A DNA stretch of 55,916 nucleotides, filler included, from Sphacelaria rigidula (GCA_964200075.2; 5 parts of 5 records of this genome joined end to end with filler, not necessarily neighbours in it); one strand, 5' to 3'; shown: positions 1 to 55,696, counted from the first letter of the whole stretch. Notes: generated from the sequence alone by a model not told the origin. Made by a program: numbers and translations.

Positions 1-299
1 GGGGGGGGGGGGCAGGGGGGGAGGGTGGGTGGCGCGGCGGGGCGCTGGGGGGGGCGGGGGGGCGGCGGGGTGGGGGGGGGGGGGGGGGGGGGGGGGGGGT
101 ACTTATTCCTTGCTTGCCGTAGTCGTTCGACCATTGACCACGCATCCCTTTCAAGACGGAGCCGGGGGAGGGGGGGGTAGCATGGAAGCTGGCACCCCTG
201 CCTTGCCCTTCCGGTTGTTAACTTTTTGGAGCTGCTATGTCGATACCTTCCGGTACTCGTTGAGACTGTTCCAGCACACCTGTGCGTTTTTTCGGTAGT

Positions 300-4303: not shown

Positions 4304-5156
4304 CGTCCACCCAACAGTCAACCTACCACAGCTTGCGGGCCCTCGTCGTCTGATTCTTGTAACACTTTACTGGAATGTATTGTAGTTTCTACTGCAGCGG
4401 CAGACCGATGAAGGCGACCACTCCTTGGTTACGGGCTGCGGAAGTGATCCCAGGTACCGTGGAGAGAAGGGGGACTGCACCAATAAATACAAAGAACACT
4501 TCCTCACCAAGATATCTGAGAAAGGATGGGAAAGCGAAGGGGTGTTATTGAACGTGATATGATAGAGTATGACTCGAAGGCATTGCGTGCATCTGAAGCA
4601 TGTGTAACAGCGCAGCAGCAGCGGTTCATCTTATTTCTCTGTGTTGCGATTAAGTGAGCTGCGATATTCATGCTGAAAAGCATGGTAAAGCACAGTGTAG
4701 CATAAGTAACGGTGCATGTGTGCCTTCATTGCTGGAAGAGAGAAAGCGAAGTAATCGAAGAAAACGTACTGACAGTGTAGTTCAAGAGGCATAAAAAAAG
4801 CGCTCAAATTTGCAAATTTGAATTTGACTTACGACGTTCAAGGGCGCCTGGAGGGCGGGCTGGGTATTCGGGGGGCGAGAGGCTACGCTGTGCTTTCTAT
4901 CTCGTGATCCAGAGGAAAAGCTTCAGGGTAAGGGGAAGAGAAGGAGAAAGATCAACACCAGCAGTGACAGCACCAGTAGCGTCCTGTCTCGAGAGGACCT
5001 TGCGAATTTAGCTTCAGATAGCGCAGAGGACATCACGTCTGGGAGGCAGGACAAACAGCCCAGCTGGCCACGTCGAGAGCGGCAGCAGGGAGATAAGCCG
5101 GGACAGTGTCGTCGCGCCTTCGTCTGGGCCAAACGTGACTTGAGTAGCCTGTGATC

Positions 5157-5275: not shown

Positions 5276-5559
5276 GTGAGCGGACTGAGATCTTGTTGAC
5301 ATTAAGATTACAAAAATGTACTCCTATACTGTACTGTAATAGAACAACGCCACCAATATGATGGGGTTTAACACCCCCAATGTGCGATGGTGCTTCTCTA
5401 GGGAGCAAGACCCTGCGCTACCGAAGAGCCACCCCCACATGCTGTACGTCGAGGTTGATTTAGGGGACTTTTCACAGGTTTTAATTTCGATAAACGCGAA
5501 GATCGGAAACTGAAAGAAGCAAGGCTGAGTGCGTTGCACTCCTGTAGTCTGGTGGTAGT

Positions 5560-10503: not shown

Positions 10504-10865
10504 TCCCCCCCCCCCCTATGAGATCTGCGTCGGTTGGCAATGACGCTGTAAAACACGCCACTCACTGCGTAAGCTGTTATTGGGTACCAGGTTACCGACT
10601 TTTTTTTTTGCGCGCTTGTGTTTTTCTTGCGGTAACCATGATGGTGGTCGAGCTAGATCATGGTGTGCGACGTGGGAGAACCTCAACTCCGCGCAAAGAA
10701 CATGGTCGTACTATAATACGTGGTGTTTGCATGGTGAGACACTCATGAGGCGGTGTATGAGCCGTGGCTGTCTCTGGAAGTGTCTATACCAGAAAGTGAA
10801 GCAACTCATTGGAGACTGCCATCTAAGTGCAAGATACCCGGTACGCTTCGGGCCGAACAATCTTA
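10504..10865 (-). repeat. Dispersed ~500-bp family A, partial copy
   Basis: Reverse complement aligns with 16040-16390. Confidence 0.85.
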
Positions 10866-11106: not shown

Positions 11107-11206
11107 NNNNNNNNNNNNNNNNNNNNNNNNNNNNNNNNNNNNNNNNNNNNTTAATTAATTAANNNNNNNNNNNNNNNNNNNNNNNNNNNNNNNNNNNNNN
11201 NNNNNN
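11107..11206. other. Artificial contig spacer
   Basis: 44N + TTAATTAATTAA (stops in all six frames) + 44N. Confidence 0.98.
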
Positions 11207-15878: not shown

Positions 15879-16542
15879 TACTCATGATCTTACATGCCGT
15901 AGTCATGCGGCCATTGACGTCGCATTCCTACAAAGCCGGGACGGAGCACGCCGGGTTTTCGCCAGACCAGGCTCGCAATCAATCACCAAGTTCGAAGCGT
16001 CGTGGTGTGTTCGACGAGTCGCATGAAGGGTGAGCTGCATCTTGCTGAGATTAATCGGCCCGGAGCCTACTGAGTATATTGCACTCGAAAGACAGCCTAC
16101 AATGAGTTGCTTTAATTTCTGGTATCGCCACTTCCAGAGACAGCCACGGCTTATACACTGCCTCATGGGTGTCTCACCATTTCAACACTACGTGGTGCGA
16201 TCATCCCCATTGTGCGGAGTTGAGGTTCTCCCACGCCGCACAACATGATCTAGCTCGACTACCATAATGGTCTCCGCGAAACAAACTCAAGCGCGCAAAC
16301 AAAAAAAACAGTAACCTGCTTGCCTAGCTTACGCAGTGAGTGGCGTGCTTCACCGCATCATTACCCACCGACACCAGGCACATGAGGGGGGCGTCTCTAC
16401 AAAGTCGAGACGGAGCACGCCGGGTTTTCGCCGGACCAGGCTCGCAATCGATCAACAAGCGCGAAGCGCTGTAATGTGTTCGGCGAGTCGCATGAATGGT
16501 GAGCTACATCCCGCTCAGATTGTTCGGCCCGTCGCGTACCGA
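15879..16542 (+). repeat. Dispersed family A: full ~520-bp copy plus tandem partial copy
   Basis: 15879-16396 runs TACTCATGATC..CATGAGGGGGGCGTCT. 16397-16542 repeats CTACAAAG..GACGGAGCACGCCGGGTTTTCGCC..GACCAGGCTCGCAATC. Confidence 0.85.
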
Positions 16543-22311: not shown

Positions 22312-22411
22312 NNNNNNNNNNNNNNNNNNNNNNNNNNNNNNNNNNNNNNNNNNNNTTAATTAATTAANNNNNNNNNNNNNNNNNNNNNNNNNNNNNNNNN
22401 NNNNNNNNNNN
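22312..22411. other. Artificial contig spacer
   Basis: 44N-TTAATTAATTAA-44N. Confidence 0.98.
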
Positions 22412-23146: not shown

Positions 23147-25636
23147 GACTATGATCTGTTAGCGAGTTGCTACCCCCATACAGTAGCATTTTCAGCACAA
23201 GTACAAATCTCTTGTTCCCCTCTGTATTGACCGCTGACGTCATTCCCATCACCAGCGGCAGCCACGCGTGAGAGACACACCCGCACAGCTCGCACAGAGA
23301 GATGCGTGCAACTATATCTCCCAGCACTTAACCTTGTGAGGAAGCATAGACCTACCGACGGGTAGTACGGACCACCGCTTTCCAGCACGGTGGCTATCAT
23401 GTGCAAGGTGCGTGGTGGGTGTTGTAGTGATAGCACGATGGAAACGCGGACCGTCTCTCCCACGAGTAAGAAAGGCAGCAGCAGCAGTGTCGGCACCGGC
23501 TGATTTAGCCCCACACCCAGCCGCGTACATCTACTGGCAAAAAAAATGCTGCTGATACTGCTGCTGTTGCTTCTTCTCGTGCGGAAGGCGATTTGCGTCT
23601 CGATCTGCGACAATACCCATACCCCCTTGCGCGTGATTGCCGCCCTTCTTGAAGTCGCTGGTCTGTTCGCGTGCTGTTTTACCGTCTCTGTATCACCTGT
23701 TCCCTATCCTAGCTTGCTCGATTAAAACAGCACGTGGTTTCTCGTGATGATGAAATTGTTGCCACTTCACTATCACCATCACGAGATAATCATAATGTTC
23801 CTTGTTTCGTTCAAACACCGCCTTACCCTTTGGGTGTAGAGCCGATACTGTGTATCGGCCGCGGCGTGACGCCTGCGGCGGTACTACCTGCTCACTGCAC
23901 AGCGGCAGGGTTTAGGGTGACAGAGCACACCGCAGAACGTCGCATCCTTCGTCTATCCCTGTCCTGTATTGATTTCGCGTTGTCCTATGCAGTTCGCAAC
24001 ATCATGAGAGCAGCCGTTGTATCGCAGCCAAGGTGTACGTAGATGGGATATAAACTTCCTCGCCAATCGCTATATTGCTACATCACATTTTTTAAAGATG
24101 TCCTTGTTGCAGCTACAGCGTGCGTTTGCCCCAGGTGGCGCACCCAGGAGTGAAAGGCTGCCTCCGTCGCTGTAATGGCTGCCTGTATCTTGGGCGAAGC
24201 TGTATGGTTACACAGCCGCGGCTGGTGCGCCCACATATACCGAAAGGGGGAGACCGGCGTCCAGATTTATGGGACGAGAACACACGCAGCACGCTCGACG
24301 TTGCGCAGTACACTTTCCACATACATCGTGTTCGTACTGTCTGTAGAAATCTTTTGTCCACGGTTGGGTACATTTTCCATATACTATGCAGGGGCAACAT
24401 CTGGGCGAATCGCAGGTGAGGCAATCGCCGAAATATTCACCTGCAAGCTCTGCTCCAGTGTACTGTAAGTTGATATCGCTAGAAGGAACCTACCATAACC
24501 ACCTTGCCGGCTGCCAGACTGTCATAGACTCTCAGGACGTAGGATCCGCTGGCGTTTCTACTGTCTGTACGGGGGTGTTGCCCACTTGTCAGGTACGTTT
24601 TGGAGCATGATACTCGATGTAGATCATCCTTGTACATGGGCACTAAACGCTGGGGGTTTTCACTCAAGACTTCGATTTGGAGGATGATACTAGGTAGGCA
24701 GCGGCAACTTCTGTGTGTCCAGGTGCCCCTTGGAGCAGGATGCGTTTGGTGTCCGTTTGACGAAGTTATTCGCAAAAAACGAAATCGATAAGAGTTTTGG
24801 ACTGGAAACATCTAGCAAAACAAATATCGCAAGAACCATGACGCAAGGACCACGGCGCAAAAAATCTCTTAGTCGAATTTTTACCGCAGCAGAAACCAAC
24901 TTCACTTCGTGAAATTAGAAAATTGATTCAGGCGTCGAGAGTACGTTACAGGACTCGGAGCAAGGGTGCGCACTCTTTTTTTCGAGCCATTTGTACGGGT
25001 TGGGTGGCCGCGAGTGAGAAACATCAGACTAACGTGGTGATCGAAACAATCACAAGTGAGATGCCTGCCTTTTTCAAGTTCTCTAGAGACAGAGCCGCAG
25101 CCTGTAGAAGGGGGTAGGGTGAGAAAAGAACAGTTCATTAAGCCAGCCGTCTGTGTACGTTGGAGCACTCCTGCAGCTAATGCAGCAGCTTGTAGACGCC
25201 CCCATAATGTTTATATTGTGTTTTCCGGGCCAATATGTATGTTATGATATGTGAACGTTTCCGCAAGGCAAGAAGAAGTGGGGGGAGGGAAGGCTGTGGG
25301 GGGGGGGGGGGAGTCTGTTGCCTAGACGGAGAGATGAGCAACCTTGTGTTTGGAAGCGGTTTATCACGTTTTTCGAGTGGNNNNNNNNNNTTGGGGGGTT
25401 GGGGTGGGGGTCCGTGTGGGTGCTGTGGCGGGCGGGTGGTGTGTGAGGGGGGCTGGGGGGGGGGGGGGGGAGTCTGTTGCCTAGACTGAGAGATGAGCAA
25501 CCTTGTGCTTGGAAGCGGTTTATCACGTTTTTCGAGTGGGGGACAAATAGCGCTGAGTCACAGGTAGGATGGGAGCGGAGCTGTTTGAAGGTTTCGACAG
25601 GATGAAGCTTATGCTTGTCGCTGGCGTCGGTCCCGG

Positions 25637-31608: not shown

Positions 31609-32927
31609 ATAAGTGGGCCAAATAGGGCCAAAACGGGTACATTTCGACATCTTCTTCATATTGACAACTAACTTTTTTTTTTTCGCATCAGCTTTGTTGG
31701 CGCGTAATCTTTCCAACGAACCCAACTATAGGATGATCGGAAAAGTTTGAATGTGCACACGATTCAAAGCCCATAACTTTCCAGACTTATGAGATAGAGG
31801 AAGTATTCCCTCGCGTATCGGTAAAAGCTGGAGTGCTTCCTTCATCTTCCATCGGAAGCAAAAACGTGCGGTATATCGCCCACTGCACTCAACGCCGAGG
31901 CTACTGTACTAAAGGCGGCTCCCACCTTCTGCCGTGCTTCTTGCTCTTCTTTCATGCAGGCCCGGTAGTTCTCAAAAAATGGCTGGCATGCTGCCTGTCC
32001 ACACGGGCGCAGAATCGAGCACGCGCGAGGGGTGGGGGTGGGGCACAGGATCGACAGAAGCGCAGCGAGAGATGGGACAGTGTGAGGGAGATACGGGGGT
32101 AGATGCAGATATATAGGCAGATACTAAACTTACAAAAAAAGGACAATGGAGAGGGAAACAGAGACGTGGAGAGGTTGGTAAAACAGAGGGAGAGAGGGAA
32201 TGAACGGGCGCTCGACAAGGGCGCAGAGGCAAACCTACAACGCGTTGGTGGTGGCTTCGATCTAATACCTCAAAATTGAAAATAGAGCCGAATTTATCAT
32301 TTGAGGCCCCGTACATCCCGGCAAAATCGCACCGAATGAACTCCGCATGACGGGGGCACGACAACTTGCCCCTCGAATAATGTCACAGCTGTTAGGCGAC
32401 TCGCACAGGGGGCGGCGGGGGGGGGTGGGGGACCTTACACAGGACAGGCGACTTTTGAACAGGACGGCGATGCGCAGGCGCTCTCTCAAGGAGAAACGGT
32501 GACGCATCCGCGAGCTTTCACCCACAACTTTGCGGCCACGATTAATCCTTTCATTGGAGAGGTCTCGGGATCGGGATTGGAGTCTTGAGTGAAATAATTC
32601 AATCGCACAATATTGCAATATTTTATACAACTTTGCAAACGTTCGACCGGCCATCACACACACTCCCTGGAAAATGACATTTTGAAAGTAAAGGATATGT
32701 CGGTGACATAAAACTTCAACGTGTCGAACGAGTGCGAATCTTGATCGTCGAGCGCGTAGTCCTTGGTTTGATCGACCGACTCGTCCCCCAGTTTTGCCTT
32801 TTGTTGGCCCTATCATGGCTCGATTCAACTCGTGGCTGCCAATTCTTGAGGAGGTTCTCGCCAACTCGGCGCCCCAAACCCGTGGTTGAACATACTTCGT
32901 TGTCGTCAAGCTTCAATCCTTGCTGAG

Positions 32928-33513: not shown

Positions 33514-33613
33514 NNNNNNNNNNNNNNNNNNNNNNNNNNNNNNNNNNNNNNNNNNNNTTAATTAATTAANNNNNNNNNNNNNNNNNNNNNNNNNNNNNNN
33601 NNNNNNNNNNNNN
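33514..33613. other. Artificial contig spacer
   Basis: 44N-TTAATTAATTAA-44N. Confidence 0.98.
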
Positions 33614-36527: not shown

Positions 36528-36691
36528 TTACGAGTCGACCGTCGTAAATACATGCCGAGCACGTTCTACATAGGTAGCACCCGGTTGTAGGTAGACCGAG
36601 TCTCGCCATGCCTCTTTGTTCATGGCGTCTGGAAAATGTTGGGTTTCCAGGCAGACGGCGTAGTGTTGCAAATGCGGCCTGTCCGCAGGGT
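36528..36691 (-). CDS. galM: Aldose 1-epimerase (galactose mutarotase), last exon
   Basis: Acceptor TGTCAG|, phase 1: (D)PADRPHLQHYAVCLETQHFPDAMNKEAWRDSVYLQPGATYVERARHVFTTVDS*. CLETQHFPD contains the catalytic Glu motif of the family. Confidence 0.92.
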
Positions 36692-37901
36692 CTGACAAGG
36701 TCCAAAAACGCAACATCGGTGGCCGGAGGGGAGACGGGAGGGTGAAGGGGGGTTGGTGTAGTCGGGAGACGAACGACACGGCGTGTGCATTGCATTGAGG
36801 GAAACGAAGTAGGATGGAGCTTATTCCCGTCAAGAGACAACAATCCCTCAGCAGATCGTTCCTCTAAAGGTGCAAGGAGTAGATACCGCATATAACGCAT
36901 CCACTTGACGCCGGGATCGAGGCAAATGAAACGCCATGGCCAAACTCTCCCGGCAATCTCTATAAACAAACCTGCCATGCATAGAAGCTGTCCGTACTGG
37001 GTGTGATGTGAAATGGTTCATCACGTGATAGGCTCGAACTTGAGCGAAATCTCCAATACGGACGCGTGAGCAGCGAAGCACTGCTGCGGCTGCTGATGAT
37101 GGCGCAGGTACGGCATACCCAGAAGCATACTTCTAAAATGGTACGTAGCTCGTGGTGGGTTGGGCTGTTGCCTCTAGATACAACGATTATATTTCAGCTC
37201 TTGACTCGGAGTTGTACCCCATTATCACGCTCAACTGCGTTTGGTACACCGCCATATAGAAGCCTGTTCAGGCGCAATACACGAACCTTGAAACTGTAGA
37301 TTCCTGCAAAAGCGCGATACACGGCTCGAATCTGTCATAAAGACCGGTCGCAGCGGGGTATATCAAAATCTAACACAGAGAGAACCAGTACGAGCCGCAG
37401 AAAAACATTGAGAAACAATAATCGCACACGTGCCACTACCGACAAGTGCGCCGCGTGCTCTGCGCGGTCTCACTTGCATGATTTTACACCATGTTGGCCC
37501 AACCGAATACAGCCTCTGGTTAAGCAGTTAAAGGACGGTTTGATCGGTGCAATAATCGAAAAGATCGAAATTGGTGCTCAGTCGTCCCAAAGGTCCAAGG
37601 AGAATGGCATCTCGGATACTTGTGAGCTATTTCCAAGTTCTTCATTATTTCACTTTCAACATCATTCCACAAATGTGATCCCGAAAATATATCAAAGTCG
37701 GCGTGACTACCAAATTGTTCGAACCATGGTGATGTAGGCCTTGAAATGGTCGATTTGCGCAGTCCCCCCAAATTCGTCAGATCTCATTTTTTCAACTTCG
37801 AAGTGGCAACCAGCCGAAGGCATGCTTCGTTCTGTTCCGCTGGGGCCCTCCTGAACTTCGAGTGACAACCTGGCGGAGACAGTCTCGGTCTGTTCTGCGG
37901 A

Positions 37902-44715: not shown

Positions 44716-44815
44716 NNNNNNNNNNNNNNNNNNNNNNNNNNNNNNNNNNNNNNNNNNNNTTAATTAATTAANNNNNNNNNNNNNNNNNNNNNNNNNNNNN
44801 NNNNNNNNNNNNNNN
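44716..44815. other. Artificial contig spacer
   Basis: 44N-TTAATTAATTAA-44N. Confidence 0.98.
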
Positions 44816-45915: not shown

Positions 45916-46560
45916 ATGGATGAAAGACCCGTGGTGGAGGGACATCATTACAACAAAGAGTTTGAAGCTTGGCGGATTCAAAATGGCTGTGAAGCAATAC
46001 CTAGCGTGGTTCCTGAAAATATGAGATTACCGGAACATAACCATCGTGGCTGTGCGATGACGATGTTAGGAGAAAAGACGCAGCTTTGTCGTCACGGTGT
46101 TCAACGGTGTCACGCACGTCTCATAAAAGCGATACATCGTCGAGGACTCCGGCTTCTCCGACTAGTGGACACCGTGAACACTGCGCCGAGAACTGTGGGC
46201 AGGCGGGAGTATCTTGTGCAGCAGCACCCACAGTGATACAGCGGTTGAGAACGGACGACCACCGGCAGCGAACACTATATACCACACTCAACAAAGAAAT
46301 AGAGAAATAATAATGTCCATTCTTACCAAAACGACGCGCGGAGGAGCGGCATGCCGAGTGATGAAGGAACCCGCGTAGTAACGAACGACAAGCTGCACGA
46401 TCCGGAAGTTGCTAGCGCAGTGCAAGATAAGGTCCCCAACAGCACTGCCACCGGCGCGAAAATCAACATCTAAGACGACCCCGTCGCAGATCTGGCGATT
46501 TTCGTGTGCAATCCGCCGTGTTCGCTGGAAGGCTTGGTACACGTTCTTCAGGCCAGCAAG
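45916..46560 (+). pseudogene. Decayed coding-like sequence, possibly a retrotransposon gag remnant
   Basis: Protein-like stretches (KEFEAWRIQNGCEAI..; TNDKLHDPEVASAVQDKVP..) broken by stops and frameshifts. The family assignment is an impression only. Confidence 0.3.
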
Positions 46561-49493: not shown

Positions 49494-52400
49494 TCATCCA
49501 AAACGACGAGCGCCGGATGCTGCGTATTCTTCGTGAATGTGCGTATCATCTTGATATGTCTTGAACGATTTGCATCGGTGGAAGTCTGATACGAAGTTCT
49601 GGCCTAGCATGAGCCTGGACGGAAAATCGGCCGAGAAAGTGATTGTCGCGGCGAAATCCGTTGTAGCGTGCTCCTTCACATGCATTTCAGCTTGAGCACT
49701 TCCGGCCCGAAGATCAATAGCTCGTAGTCGGTTGCTTTGTCTCGGTTTGTTGGTAACTGAGTGGTTACGGCGGTTGAGTGCATTCAACGAGAATGATCTA
49801 CGAGGGGCCTGTGCAGTTGTTTCTAGTCGGACTATTCCTGTACTATTGGACCTTTGACTACACTCGGGGTCAGCTTGCGTAACAACTACCGTAACAACTA
49901 CCGTTCACCCGCTCCAGTGGCTAGGGTATTGCTAATCTCTCTTACCGCACCCCAAAGAGGCATGTAGTAGATCTTTTTTTGCCAATCGGTGGTGATTTGT
50001 ACCTGATCTCTCCCGCGGCAGCTCGGAAGATGGAGAGTTTCTTCTCGGTGGACAGACACTCGAAAAGCTCTGGCGACGACACCTGGAGACAAACATGACC
50101 AGTGTGAGTAAGGGCGCGCAAAGACTTTGAGAAATTAAAAAAACGGGCGTGATAGCAGAGCACTATTGCCAACCTCGTCTGAAAAGGGGGGTGGCGTTCA
50201 ACCGACCCGGTTGGGAAGATTCAGACCCTATAATTGCATGTGGTGCAGTTCGAGGTCCGAGTCGCGATACGTCAGAAAGCGGGAGAAATAGTCGCTTTCT
50301 ACTGTTGTGAATATTGGTCAATGGCTGACGTCTTTCCCTCTACTGGTACATCCAGATTTCTTCAGCCGGCTGGCGCCTTCGTCTTCCCCCCAGATTCGTG
50401 TCGTACATGACAGTATCGTAGAATTGCCATGTAGAACTGATGGCGATATGCCACACCTTCATTACGTCATCGCGCATCTTGGAGTGAATATTGACCTCAA
50501 AGTTGCTGCCTTGTTTGATATACTTGTTCTGGATGGTCTTGACCTTCTCGAATGGGGCGAAGCTTTGTCCAAAGTCCATCGCTTCGTATTCATATACCTG
50601 CGCATATCATTGCATAGCACCTACACATCAGCTTGGATGCTTTCAAGGTGAATCTGCAGCACCTATATTCAACAGCCGATTTCAAAAGTGAGGATAGAGC
50701 TTTCCACTGAGTTTGAGGGTGATGACACGAAGAATTAAGATGTTCGTATCTACACCAAGTATTCAAAGTATAGGTGCATTCCCTTCACCTGCTGGTAGCT
50801 AGTGACAACAACTACACGCCATACAAGTGTGGATTCCGATAACCAAATCGTGTGATCCGCCGGCGGATCACCTCAATTCCGCAGATTTGTTTTTACCTAG
50901 GACCCCAAAATTTCGGTTATCGGAATACGTATTTGTGTGGCGTGTGGTTGTTGTCAATAGCTATCAGCAGGTGAAGGAAATGCAACTATATTTCGAAGAA
51001 TTGGTGTGGATACGAACATGTTAATATTTCTTGTTATCATCCCCAATAGGAAGCTCTATCCTCATTCTGAAAAACCGGCTGTTATTACGGCATTTCGTCG
51101 TGGGTGTGTTTAGGCACTCACTGACTATGATAAGGCAATACAAATGAATGAAGAAGGCAATAAAAAAATACCATAACCGTCTTCGCTGTTGGAGCGGCTG
51201 CATTGATAGACGAGATTATCTCGGCGTGCGTCCGCCCTGTGCATAAGCTGGCGCGAGCATTACGGGGGGCATCTTGCGCGCGCTACCGATCCCATGAGCG
51301 GCAGAGACCAGCACAGCCGCATGCACGCATAGCGGATTACACACCCTGACCTATTTTCAACTTTGAAGAGATTTGTTCACATCATCGACTTCGTCGGCGT
51401 TCAGAATCAAGTAGTTCTGCTAACAGTGGCGCTAGTTTCACTCGAGTAATGGTTTCCCGTTTCCCATGAGAGTTCTTCTCATATTCCACTGAAGAATATG
51501 CGTTCTTCTGATTGCCACTGACCTCGTCTAAAAACCAGAGCGATTCGCCGCAGAGGTGTTGCTGAATGAACTCACGGAATATCGGGCACAGCTCGTTGTT
51601 CCCCATTATATTCTCCACGGTCCGGAAGTGGACCGAGCTCTACCGGCACAGCAGGGGGCGTGGGGCGGGCAATGGGCATGTGGCTGTCCAGGGACCAACG
51701 GAACACGATACAAGTAGCACGACTAATGGCTTATGTGGTGATGCAGCCTTGCGTGGCGGCAGAGGCTGACGATGGTCACGACAAAGCTATTCGTGCGACA
51801 CATTTTTTCACAGAATACATCACAGATCTTCATCCCGAAAGGACAACCAGGAACCGAGGACAGCTCTGCAATAAATATCTTGATACAACTCTCGGCGATA
51901 GATGAAAAACATCAGACCGGGGGAGGGGATGTGCTCGTGAATTATCTACTGCTCATCTTCTAGAAATGTCGCATGCTACGGTTTCGTGTATCCAGGTCCT
52001 CACAGACCGTTGCGAGGAATGTATCCACAGTACCTATGTCTTGCAAAAGAATACTAGGAACAAAAACTCCCAGCTAGGCGGCAGTGGCTACTCGGCATCA
52101 AACCAAATTAAAAACACAACCCTTGCGGCGCCATACTCCTCAACATTGTCCAGATGGGCCGGGCAACGCCTGCGTCGAACACAAGGCATCGCCGTGGACA
52201 CAACATATTTCTTACGCTACCAAGCGTCGGAACACCGTGGTTTCGAACGAAGTTAGCCGTCGTCACATCGCGGGAATAGGTACGAAGACTGCGCAACAGG
52301 CTACCTCCATATCCTGTCTCGGAAACGACGAGGGAAAAGTACAGCTACTTTTCCATCGCCAGAAACGTCTCATGTATGTAAAGTATTTCATCGTGCAGCG

Positions 52401-55056
52401 TTACCGTGCCCGTCGGTACGTACAGTCGACACCCCTCCCAAGGTAGAGTGAAATAAGAGCAGCCCGATTTCCGTCGAATCACGGTGAACGTGGGTGGGTG
52501 TGGTGAGCGGTTTTACGACTATAATATCGATCGTGTGATGCTAGCGGGGCATGCGGACAGCGTACGAGTAGAGACTATGCGAAAAGCTCAGCATTCATGA
52601 CGAACTTGCAGGAGAAGAGCTTGAAATAGCCTAGGGCTGTTCGGTGAACTTACTTGGTTCTCGCCATCGTCTATAGCGATCTTCTGCGCCCCGCGTTTGC
52701 TGTTCCAGCGCACAGGAGAAAATCTGCGGCGAGAAGCAAGCGCTCGAATGGGTTACGAGAATGCGCTGACCCCATGGTAATCGCCAAGTTGTTCAGAGTC
52801 AGCATACTACGCTCTTGGCCACGCCAAGAGGATGTTCGCAAGCAGAGTGGGTGTTAACACGGGTGGCTGTTACACCTCCTCTGTTCGATGCGACATAAAT
52901 CTGACTTTTATAGCCAAGCCACCAGTTCGGATTGCCGCAACCCACACAGAATGCCACTCGTAAAACAACAGCCTCCACCACAGTGGCTGTTGGACCTTAT
53001 CCCCAACGAATGCAAATCAGAACATACTCACGTGTTGACTTGTAACAAAACCAGAAGGCCGGCCAGCACTAGTTGGATGGAACTGTTGATTCGCAGTCCA
53101 TCGAACTTGTGCCAGAGGAATATGCAGTCTACCCGAAGATCAGGAAGTGAACAAGCGTTCATAGAGAGAGCGAGCAGACATTGTGTGCGAAGTCACTCGA
53201 GCAACGTATTGCAAGTCGTTTGTCGGTGACGATATTACGCCCACCAAATACAGACCAACTAGCTCACATTTGACGAGAGTCAGCAGAACTACGGTTGAGC
53301 CTCGAGTGCAAACATAATACCGTGAACCGTACCCATATTTTTTCTCATCAATCGCATTTGCTTAGCTGCCATCATTTACAGCCACTCTAATCTCCTGTCG
53401 ACCGACAACACATGCATGGGCATAACTCCAAATGAACATGCCGCGTCGTCCACCAAGAGCAATCAATATGTCATACATCTATGCGCGAACAAGATCAACA
53501 CACGTAGTTGGAACACGTCGATGTGTTCATACCATGCCCAACGATGTGCTTGGTCTACAGCCGTTCTGATATGTTCCCCGATCTCAATCGAGAACAGAGT
53601 ACGAGAGCGGCAAATAGGGTCCTGTTGACTTCATGAGTCAACGCCGACAATGTTGCAGTACAATTGAAAACACCCAATTATTAGTGTATGGATTCACCCT
53701 CTACAGTAGAGCACTCTGTGCCCCCCTTTTGCCCGTTCCGTAGCAGGGTATACAAGTTGGGCTAAATTATTTTTCGTTTCGGCAGGGAACCAAAACGGTG
53801 GGTATAACTCACAGTACAGTGAAACGAAAATGAACATAGCCGCGAAGGTGGGTATGAGCTCGTTGGCGAGGTTGACCTTGTCCCCGAATCGTAGAATTTT
53901 CACCGACAACGTGCTCAATGCCACGATCTGGGTTTCAGTACAAGTACGGTGGTGTAGAAAGGGCTGGTATGCTCAGTGTGGGGATTCAACTGCAACAAAA
54001 GCGTTCAAGATAGCAGTCGCGGCACATTGGAGCCGCTGGTGGAAACTTGGAGCGAACTCTAATTTTTTTACAATGGTGATAAATTGCTTTTTAAGATGGT
54101 ATTTGACGTCATACCTCGGGACACAATAGCACCTATCCATACTGCAATACTTCAAGCTTCGGTATCCTCCTCTGTACGAACATTTTGGCAACGTGGAGGG
54201 GCACATGACGGTATGATTAGTACTCGTGCCTAATTAGCGTTTATCTAAGGATAGGTATGTTTTTTATGTTTCGTACGGATTGGCAAGTGCGCGGGTGACT
54301 AGGCGCATGGATAACTACACAAATAATGGGTACACGTATGAGTGAGGTAACTGTTGAACGTGAATTCGAGCTCATTGCTTCACGGTAGCTGTTCAAGCTC
54401 GCCTGGATCGCAGCAAAGGGCACCCAGAACCAGACCTGTTGATGCAGGAGGCACGTGCGTTCAGAGCCCTTATCGACATTTCTGAGAAACATGGGAGCAT
54501 ATGGTGAGGACGCATACAACAAACAGGTGCACAGCTAAGCACAGTTGGCATTGGGCGAAGCAAAAGGGTATATTGATAAGCATACAAAGATAACACTGAC
54601 GTTATCCCAACAGTGACGCCTTCCGAATGCATGGTAATGTGCCTGAAAATTAAGTTATGTCTATTTCGCTCGAACACGACCGGCCGGTATTTTTGTATGA
54701 ATGCCACTTACACTTCCCACCTCATACACGATCCGAAAGGAAACACCTTACCAGAGTACGGTCTAGAAAACGCACGAATTATGGCAGCGCGATAGAGGGG
54801 AAGCAAGGCAGTACGCAGACACTGTTATTCAGGAAACGACCTACCATCCAGAGAGCATGTGACGATGCCCATCAACCTGGACGTCCTCACCGTGATAATC
54901 ATGAACAAGATGTTCAGGCCCGCTCCCCACTTCACCTGTAGTAATCCATCTTGACAAAGACCACGGCCATTGCAATGAGCATGGGTGTCAAGCCCTGGAT
55001 GTACAATAAGATCACGCCACGAGTGCTTAGCATCCAGCTCATCTTTTTCCGGAGTT
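49494..55056 (-). CDS. Transmembrane RGS protein (7TM-RGS, AtRGS1-like architecture), 5'-partial, 9 exons
   Basis: Exons 55056-54936, 54481-54403, 53927-53813, 53128-53032, 52723-52654, 51639-51523, 50597-50457, 50082-50003 and 49614-49494 are all phase-compatible. Spliced product: ..LRKKMSWMLSTRGVILLYIQGLTPMLIAMAVVFVKMDYYRNVDKGSERTCLLHQQVWFWVPFAAIQIVALSTLSVKILRFGDKVNLANELIPTFAAMFIFVSLYYCIFLWHKFDGLRINSSIQLVLAGLLVLLQVNTFSPVRWNSKRGAQKIAIDDGENQSSVHFRTVENIMGNNELCPIFREFIQQHLCGESLWFLDEVYEYEAMDFGQSFAPFEKVKTIQNKYIKQGSNFEVNIHSKMRDDVMKVSSPELFECLSTEKKLSIFRAAAGEIRLMLGQNFVSDFHRCKSFKTYQDDTHIHEEYAASGARRFG*. It has four hydrophobic helices and a complete RGS box. Confidence 0.88.
50717..51044. mobile_element. 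Intronic foldback element / long hairpin
   Basis: ~130-bp arms 50717-50847 and 50911-51044 (ATGTTCGTATCYACACCAA..CCTTCACCTGCTGRTAGCTA.TGACAACAAC..ATTCCGATAACC). The loop contains the perfect palindrome GTGATCCGCCGGCGGATCAC (50852-50871). Confidence 0.88.
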
Positions 55057-55696
55057 CTGCATGGCACACGATTTGTTCAACGATAAGCCGAGGGGCGGAC
55101 GGGAGCTTCCGCACATGTTCCTAGAAGTGAATTCAAGTTTGTGAAGCTCCTGAACGAATTTGTTCCTACTCAGCCCCTGTCGGTTGAAGTCTCCAGGGAG
55201 TTTATCAATTCGCCTTATATTACTGACCGGTTCTGGTCTACTGACCTTATTTTCCAACGAAAGCTACTCCTGTTCTGATCGATCAACTACACTAGCGCAT
55301 GGTTTGAAACGAACTGCGTAATATCGGGTAAGCTGGGAATCGGTTTCGCAACCGAACGCGGATATATTACAACGGACAGAGTCAAGAAAACAACGGGCGA
55401 AATCATCACGAATCCACAAGAGAGCCAGCGGGAAGTGGTAAGAGATGGGATCGGCGTGGGTCGAGCTGGGGCACGCGAAGGAGGACAACAACGACGAGAA
55501 GATTGGCACCACAGCGAAAGAGTGCTGGTAGAACACCGAAGCGAGGCAGCGAGTACGCCAGCCAGGAGAGTGACGACCCACCAGCAGGAGCGTTTCGACC
55601 CGGCAGCCAATGCAAGTGAAGACCTTATGTCTAGGTTCTGGTGGCTTGTTTTAGAGCGCCGTTACCACTCGACGCCAACCCGAGACTCTAGAGGTG

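Follow-up and report, generated by a model that had tools for sequence, protein, structure and literature searches.

A putative 5'-truncated gene joining membrane exons to a divergent RGS box in Sphacelaria rigidula

We focused our attention on a candidate gene in a stretch of 55,916 nucleotides (nt) of DNA from Sphacelaria rigidula (GCA_964200075.2), hereafter the window, carried by the minus strand of its fifth and final contig (44816-55916). With a probability that we put at roughly 0.7, this region holds a 5'-truncated, intron-rich gene for a multi-pass membrane protein carrying a cytosolic, C-terminal and divergent RGS (regulator of G-protein signaling) box. Such a protein would work as a membrane-tethered GTPase-activating protein (GAP), switching off a G-alpha subunit in the manner of the receptor-GAPs of the AtRGS1 type. 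An earlier sequence-only reading had proposed nine exons (E1 to E9) splicing in phase between positions 49494 and 55056, and rebuilding the chain independently from the three reading frames of the minus strand (f0, f1 and f2) led to the same outer coordinates (Table 1). All eight introns are GT-AG with compatible phases, measuring 59, 873, 684, 308, 1014, 925, 374 and 388 nt from 5' to 3'; once joined, the exons form an open frame of 311 codons that closes with a TGA stop. The proposal that a single gene, split into many exons, combines a membrane domain with an RGS box is supported by the present analysis. We infer that the membrane exons, namely E1/E2, E3, E4 and a further upstream exon termed E0, are spliced to the RGS exons; the two parts lie on the same strand, are connected by phase-compatible GT-AG junctions, and share a common bias in the G+C content of third codon positions (GC3).

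The RGS box

The domain encoded by the last four exons (E6 to E9) is, in all likelihood, a true RGS domain, although a divergent one, as judged from profile and family comparisons. Pfam tests were run exon-wise, the gathering score of the RGS family (PF00615) being 23.9 bits. Among 14 stop-to-stop open reading frames (ORFs) scanned, the one holding E6 (51385-51639) matched RGS with 15.1 bits (E 0.032, profile positions 2-41), and the one holding E7 did so with 13.6 bits (E 0.089, profile positions 47-79), so that the order of the two exons is the order of the profile. The other three matches found at E <=10 in these ORFs were single, and belonged to three different, unrelated families. In addition, a manual alignment places E9 on the MNLVRDY block of AtRGS1.

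Evidence that E7 is a conserved exon came from an exhaustive search of 1.84 billion protein representatives (E <=0.001), which returned 12 proteins, ten of them true relatives with 47-76% identity and two of them repeat proteins. A profile search with the resulting exon-7 alignment (A1) added two more relatives, P0014 and P0015, and a word-index search with exon 7 gave a single match, P0001. All these relatives are short ORFs (45-237 residues) on unannotated genomic contigs. When scanned singly, 9 of the 11 aligned family members matched Pfam RGS (best E 0.0019), while no other Pfam family was matched by more than one of the 11. In 12 out of 12 distant relatives, the homology opens directly behind a codon for Q or K, providing the AG, and closes at MK|V, providing the GT; tblastn placed its starts at 50552-50618 and its ends at 50424-50454, as compared to a predicted exon spanning 50457-50597. 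Since the homology ends a few bases from the predicted splice sites, E7 can be regarded as a conserved exon with conserved splice sites and, on the basis of these alignments, it belongs to a wider family sharing the same splice boundaries.

Residues of potential relevance for GAP activity were also inspected. The loop F-E-V/I-N-I of E7 contains an Asn (N36 of exon 7) that is invariant in all 11 family members, in agreement with the earlier statement that the Asn of the EVNI motif is kept. We take the Asn of E-V/I-N-I/L to be the residue of the loop contacting G-alpha, as in the literature on RGS4 and Gi-alpha1. The Glu of G-E-S, likewise said to be kept, is indeed present in E6, an observation that applies to this copy only, where it can be matched by hand to the G-E-T/S motif in 19 plant sequences. 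This Glu is presumably the one critical for GAP activity in AtRGS1 (G-E-S/T); a literature search by the name of the GAP-dead mutant found nothing.

Additional searches were less informative. In the ESM Atlas, the best scores for E6 were 0.82-0.79 and a cluster containing RGS ranked second, which we regard as a lead only, and E7 gave nothing usable. The AlphaFold2 model of A1, with helices at positions 2-5, 13-28 and 37-46, had a mean predicted local distance difference test score of 59.8, too low for a fold search, and was not used. A tblastn comparison of the gene model with the window revealed no paralogue in the other four contigs. Scanning bacterial and archaeal genome contigs with A1 yielded one 18-residue match in a metagenome-assembled genome of Bacteroidota (L001), which was discarded as spurious; its pattern could not have matched the window's own FEVNI. 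Matches in the PDB to insulin B chain, pneumolysin and an MG075 homologue were dismissed as chance; the first of these involves the E6 stretch FIQQHLCGESL (E 1.5), and has no biological meaning.

Putative membrane exons and the 5' end

To evaluate the exons upstream of the RGS box, we used a codon-position table trained on the four RGS exons only, and 898 control ORFs with a GC3 of 0.50 +/- 0.08. With this table, each of the exons E1 to E5 scored positive in the frame of the model and negative in both other frames. Their GC3 values are 0.74, 0.70, 0.67, 0.65 and 0.65 for E1, E2, E3, E4 and E5, respectively, and the controls scoring as high numbered 1, 37, 12, 8 and 11 in the same order. The RGS exon E8 has a GC3 of 0.73. 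Once joined, E1-E5 have a GC3 of 0.68, and 9 of the 898 controls reach their score. By comparison, six other open frames of the interval between E2 and E3 (54824-53976) are not coding-like, with log-likelihood ratios (LLR) of -0.12 to -0.43 per codon. Extra exons within intron 2, at the motifs GTAAGT (54711) and GTCAGT (54600), were considered and rejected, as their frames are not coding-like either (LLR -0.20 to -0.43). Regarding splice sites, three of the seven GT[AG]AGT motifs found on the minus strand of the contig are the exact ends of E3, E4 and E5, and the acceptor of E3 is the sole phase-1 acceptor in its open frame. Moreover, the acceptor of E6 overlaps a TAG stop, so that E6 cannot be the first exon; as the RGS match also begins ahead of the only Met of E6, upstream coding exons are required.

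The gene probably extends further upstream than originally described. A frame-wise GC3 scan of 55720-55040 detected a stretch in f2, at approximately 55563-55431, in which 9-12 of every 12 codons end in G or C. Its core (55551-55420) has a GC3 of 37/44, a value reached by only 6 of the 23952 stop-free 44-codon windows of the whole 55,916-nt stretch, three of which are this very segment. We propose it as exon E0, containing two or three hydrophobic stretches, with a plausible acceptor at 55624/55623 and a donor, TTC|GTGATG, at 55410/55409. Pfam matched none of the four sequences tested for E0 and its neighboring frames. The sequence-only reading had presumed that transmembrane (TM) helices 1 to 3 all lie beyond the contig end, a view that does not hold if E0, a membrane exon inside the contig, is part of the gene; in that case, only the extreme 5' end would be missing. 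The contig ends 300 nt upstream of E0, inside an interspersed repeat, which probably explains the assembly break that removed the 5' end of the gene.

It is unlikely that the gene encodes instead a complete short protein of ~307 residues, starting at ATG 55042 behind a spliced non-coding leader. Such a protein would have three or four helices and an RGS box, being TM-anchored but not a seven-helix receptor, and E0 would be unrelated or untranslated. The ATG in question is in frame, 14 nt inside E1, with an A at -3, and the best upstream donors, AAG|GTCAGT (55245, score 9.4) and CCG|GTCAGT (55227, score 7.7), would both put a stop in frame, 0-3 codons ahead of the junction at 55056, which is what an intron in the 5' untranslated region would give. 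In addition, proteins combining an RGS box with one or more TM domains are on record (see below). However, E0 lies 353 nt upstream on the same strand, its GC3 periodicity is more extreme than anywhere else in the window, and it has a phase-1 donor that fits the 55056 acceptor.

The junction between E1 and E2 deserves particular attention. The sequence-only reading had a first intron of 59 nt, and such an intron is indeed GT-AG and restores the frame; its good GT and AG, together with its frame-restoring length, favor it as real. Nevertheless, when read in f0, the same interval has a GC3 of 17/19 and an LLR of 0.213 per codon, being as coding-like as E1. Among 56161 stop-free 19-codon control windows, 193 reach that GC3, 1394 that LLR, and 40 both. 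The coding signal exits f1 and enters f0 at one base, ~54936, and a simultaneous switch of this kind is the pattern expected of a one-base indel. Reading f0 through E1 was rejected (GC3 0.32). Moreover, the remaining seven introns are 308-1014 nt long, as opposed to 59 nt. The odds are therefore about even that this copy would contain a genuine intron of unusual shortness downstream of E1, or that its frame is shifted by one base at that point, be it through an assembly indel or a recent lesion.

If the f1 to f0 shift near 54936 were a real lesion, the gene could be a pseudogene of a multi-copy TM-RGS family, its start having been lost to the repeat at the contig end, a scenario that we consider improbable. 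It would account for a coding-like composition that continues in f0 exactly where f1 stops, for a contig that ends in an interspersed repeat, and it fits with at least 12 diverged exon-7 relatives occurring as separate sequences, as consistent with a gene family. On the other hand, no stop interrupts the ~400 codons outside that one site and every splice site is intact, the frame is restored just as well by a genuine GT-AG intron of 59 nt, and it takes reads to distinguish an assembly indel from a lesion.

Returning to the preferred interpretation, that of a multi-pass membrane protein, the number of helices was evaluated from hydropathy, using the Kyte-Doolittle (KD) scale over 19-residue windows (KD19); the values are not a predictor's output. 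The strongest hydrophobic segment, VILLYIQGLTPMLIAMAVV, is carried by E1 (KD19 2.17), and E3 contributes a weak helix (IVALSTLSVKIL), a loop (RFGDKVNLANE) and the start of a strong helix (LIPTFAAMFIFVSLY). Of the four TM-like helices initially claimed for the nine-exon model, three stand as clear hydrophobic peaks, the rest being weak, and such peaks are common by chance. The model extended with E0 comprises 403 residues, with an X at the possible frameshift, and displays five KD19 peaks >=1.4, at residues 35, 86, 121, 181 and 206, in addition to weaker hydrophobic stretches at residues 1-16, 59-71 and 155-168. Basic stretches, namely GRHSPGWRTR, LRKKMSWMLSTRG, KILRFGDK and SPVRWNSKRGAQK, alternate with the hydrophobic peaks. 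Five segments plus two or three weaker ones are thus compatible with a seven-transmembrane (7TM) layout, without proving it; the 7TM label given to the gene is only compatible with this model, which is truncated at its 5' end. The predicted protein would have up to seven helices, its N-terminus outside, its C-terminal RGS box inside, and its basic loops in the cytosol.

Several observations weigh against the gene model as a whole. Hydrophobic 19-mers with KD >=1.6 in stop-free frames occur in the window at a chance rate of 1.35 per kb per strand, and 12 hydrophobic 19-mers are found on this strand of the region, mostly outside the model; hydrophobic segments being so frequent by chance, hydrophobicity is weak evidence for membrane exons. 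Phase-compatible GT-AG chains are easy to assemble as well, the E1/E2 junction is ambiguous, and E9 has a GC3 of just 0.49. The model has no start codon and E0 contains no ATG, which implies that at least one further exon is missing. A word-index homology search with the E3 ORF gave no candidate. As to the RGS box, the colinear exon-wise matches of 15.1 and 13.6 bits both fall below the gathering score and the trimmed exons gave no RGS match (0 of 8, E8 having no match of its own); the E6 match, moreover, extends 11 residues into intron translation. PDB sequence searches with E6, E7 and the exon-7 profile A1 found no RGS chain at E <=10, for which reason the box is described as divergent. Finally, no full-length or annotated relative was found in the protein sets searched, and hence no homologue displays TM and RGS parts in one chain. 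Even so, it is very unlikely that chain building created the membrane exons artificially and that the RGS exons come from a soluble or differently built RGS protein with its true upstream exons elsewhere. Chance frequencies, the empty E3 search and the lack of any Pfam match in the membrane exons speak for such an artefact; against it, the start of E6 demands upstream coding exons, E1-E5 have the same GC3 bias as the RGS exons where the surrounding open frames do not, and three of the seven GT[AG]AGT motifs fall exactly at the ends of E3, E4 and E5.

Comparison with known RGS proteins

The mechanism of AtRGS1 is described by Urano et al. 2012, whose Fig. S3 is a 19-species alignment of plant 7TM-RGS proteins (PMC3386157); the AtRGS1 motifs quoted in the sequence-only reading are printed there in the same form. 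Ungapped hand counts against this figure were made over three colinear blocks. The block PIFREF...EAM agrees with AtRGS1 at 11/28 positions, KYIKQG...VMK at 7/23, and LSIF...KTY at 7/32; Selaginella, counted for the second block only, agrees at 11/23. As in the plant proteins, the predicted membrane domain is N-terminal to a single RGS box, and the motifs G-E-S/T-L-x-F-x-x-E-V-x-E, K-Y/F-I-x-x-G-x-x-x-E-x-N-I/L and N-x-V-x-D-F/Y of the figure occur in the same order. The stretch that begins at R-F-D/G and closes with the last helix, as measured by eye on the figure, has 62 residues in both.

There are differences as well. The strongly conserved 7TM motifs of plants, as judged by eye from the 19-species alignment, are not recognizable here, the last helix and the box are separated by ~25 residues as opposed to ~45 in the plants of the figure, and the C-terminal tail is just 18 residues. 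The box had been called uninterrupted, which is correct at the protein level; at the DNA level, however, it is split by three introns over its four exons, and a hand count against AtRGS1 in the figure finds it longer by ~9 residues in the segment leading from the Asn loop to the last helices. Moreover, the exact match to EVYE is peculiar to this copy, as all 10 relatives have D, A, R or Q in place of its Y, and no plant protein was among those found at E 0.001 by the exon-7 search of the 1.84 billion representatives. The likeness to plant RGS boxes is real at the level of motifs, and the box may be of the plant type as far as these hand-aligned motifs go.

The statement that 7TM-RGS fusions also exist outside plants is borne out by de Mendoza et al. 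2014 (PMC3971589), who report proteins carrying RGS together with one or more TM domains in most eukaryotic lineages, as TM-RGS or 7TM-RGS. There, 7TM-RGS proteins are attributed to many bikonts, chytrids, filastereans and ichthyosporeans, and not to metazoans, and Trichomonas is included among the lineages with TM-RGS or 7TM-RGS proteins. The gene described here resembles these protist and fungal proteins in the order of its domains, in a eukaryote that is not a plant and has introns. It is by domain order that they are likened; the exon-7 relatives are unannotated genomic ORF fragments only. With soluble animal RGS proteins of the R4 type, the predicted product shares the PF00615 fold family and the conserved Asn loop; unlike it, those proteins have no membrane domain, and none of their PDB chains was matched by E6, E7 or the exon-7 profile in the searches mentioned above.

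Genomic surroundings and implications

The window consists of five contigs of 11101-11106 bases each, joined by spacers (Table 1). As it is a concatenation, no feature should be read across the joins. Interspersed repeats are common to its contigs, which points to one repeat-rich genome, and the GC content is ~0.49. Besides the repeat at the contig end, another interspersed repeat at 47156-47390 matches 16037-16271 and 10635-10865. The foldback repeat, resembling a miniature inverted-repeat transposable element (MITE), has arms of 135 nt that are 83% complementary, and its self-match was seen too; one of its arms is also translated at the N-terminus of the read-through ORF of P0001, the closest exon-7 relative.

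Table 1. Features of the window, given from the 5' to the 3' end of the candidate gene and followed by other elements
Feature	Coordinates	Strand	Remarks
E0, proposed upstream membrane exon	~55623-55410	-	frame f2, VFTCIGC...PLALLWI; boundaries from splice motifs and GC3 drop
E1, membrane exon	55056-54936	-	acceptor TGCAG|AA at 55057/55056; in-frame ATG 55042
Intron 1, 59 nt, or coding in f0	54935-54877	-	GTGAAG...TCCAG as intron; VKWGAGLNILFMIITVRTS in f0
E2, 32-nt exon	54876-54845	-	LMGIVTCSLD; donor ATG|GTAGGT, phase 1
E3, membrane exon	53971-53813	-	acceptor CTGAG|CA, donor CT|GTGAGT
E4, membrane exon	53128-53032	-	CIFLWHKFDGLRINSSIQLVLAGLLVLLQVN, last TM segment; donor AC|GTGAGT
E5, basic linker exon	52723-52654	-	FSPVRWNSKRGAQKIAIDDGENQ, from last TM segment to RGS box; donor AA|GTAAGT
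E6, RGS exon A	51639-51523	-	first RGS helices, motif CGESLWFLDE; Pfam RGS on parent ORF
E7, RGS exon B	50597-50457	-	VYEYE...KYIKQGSNFEVNIHSKMRDDVMK, conserved Asn loop; Pfam RGS on parent ORF and relatives
E8, RGS exon C	50082-50003	-	VSSPELFECLSTEKKLSIFRAAAGEI; ends in phase 2
E9, RGS exon D	49614-49494	-	LMLGQNFVSDFHRCKSFKTY; 18-residue tail; TGA 49494-49496
Foldback (MITE-like) inverted repeat	50680-51073		~394 nt, non-coding; in the intron between E6 and E7
Interspersed repeat at contig end	55698-55916		matches 89-162, 15879-15990 and 16391-16459 in other contigs, 79-88% identity
Aldose_epim piece	36531-36863	-	Pfam E 4e-05, profile 246-293 of 299 (C-terminal part)
Spacers between contigs	11107-11206, 22312-22411, 33514-33613, 44716-44815		N44-TTAATTAATTAA-N44

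A general Pfam scan of the 140 ORFs of at least 95 residues in the whole window gave a single match, to a piece of an aldose 1-epimerase, which fits an intron-rich eukaryote with short exons; no G-alpha turned up in the same scan. The GPCR-independent G-protein switch with an unknown ligand that the sequence-only reading put forward is purely inferential. Rfam gave no match, either on the last contig or on the whole window. Coding-like, GC3-rich ORFs similar to the exons of the RGS gene were observed at 32657-32809 (-), 46303-46470 (+), 4386-4559 (+), 5343-5510 (+) and 1-135 (both strands), and are probably exons of other unannotated genes. At 25381-25470, a gap of 10 N is followed by a long G-rich tract, with runs of G and interspersed T.

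The TM-RGS architecture is known throughout the eukaryotes, in plants and fungi as well as in many protists, and the novelty of the gene is accordingly modest. Its practical value lies mainly in a corrected gene model, to which an exon is added upstream, in which the 59-nt intron is doubtful, and from which the start codon is missing. More speculatively, and with rather less than even odds, the gene may belong to a diversified family of true seven-helix receptor-GAPs, in which a plant-type RGS box is combined with a membrane domain unrelated to that of plant RGS1; if true, the plant-style RGS box would predate plants and would have been combined with different receptor domains in different lineages. 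Should transcripts confirm the model, this would be a membrane-anchored RGS protein in a lineage for which 1.84 billion representative proteins include no annotated relative. The likeness of its RGS box to those of plant receptor-GAPs is greater than expected, and would bear on whether regulation by receptor-GAPs is ancestral.

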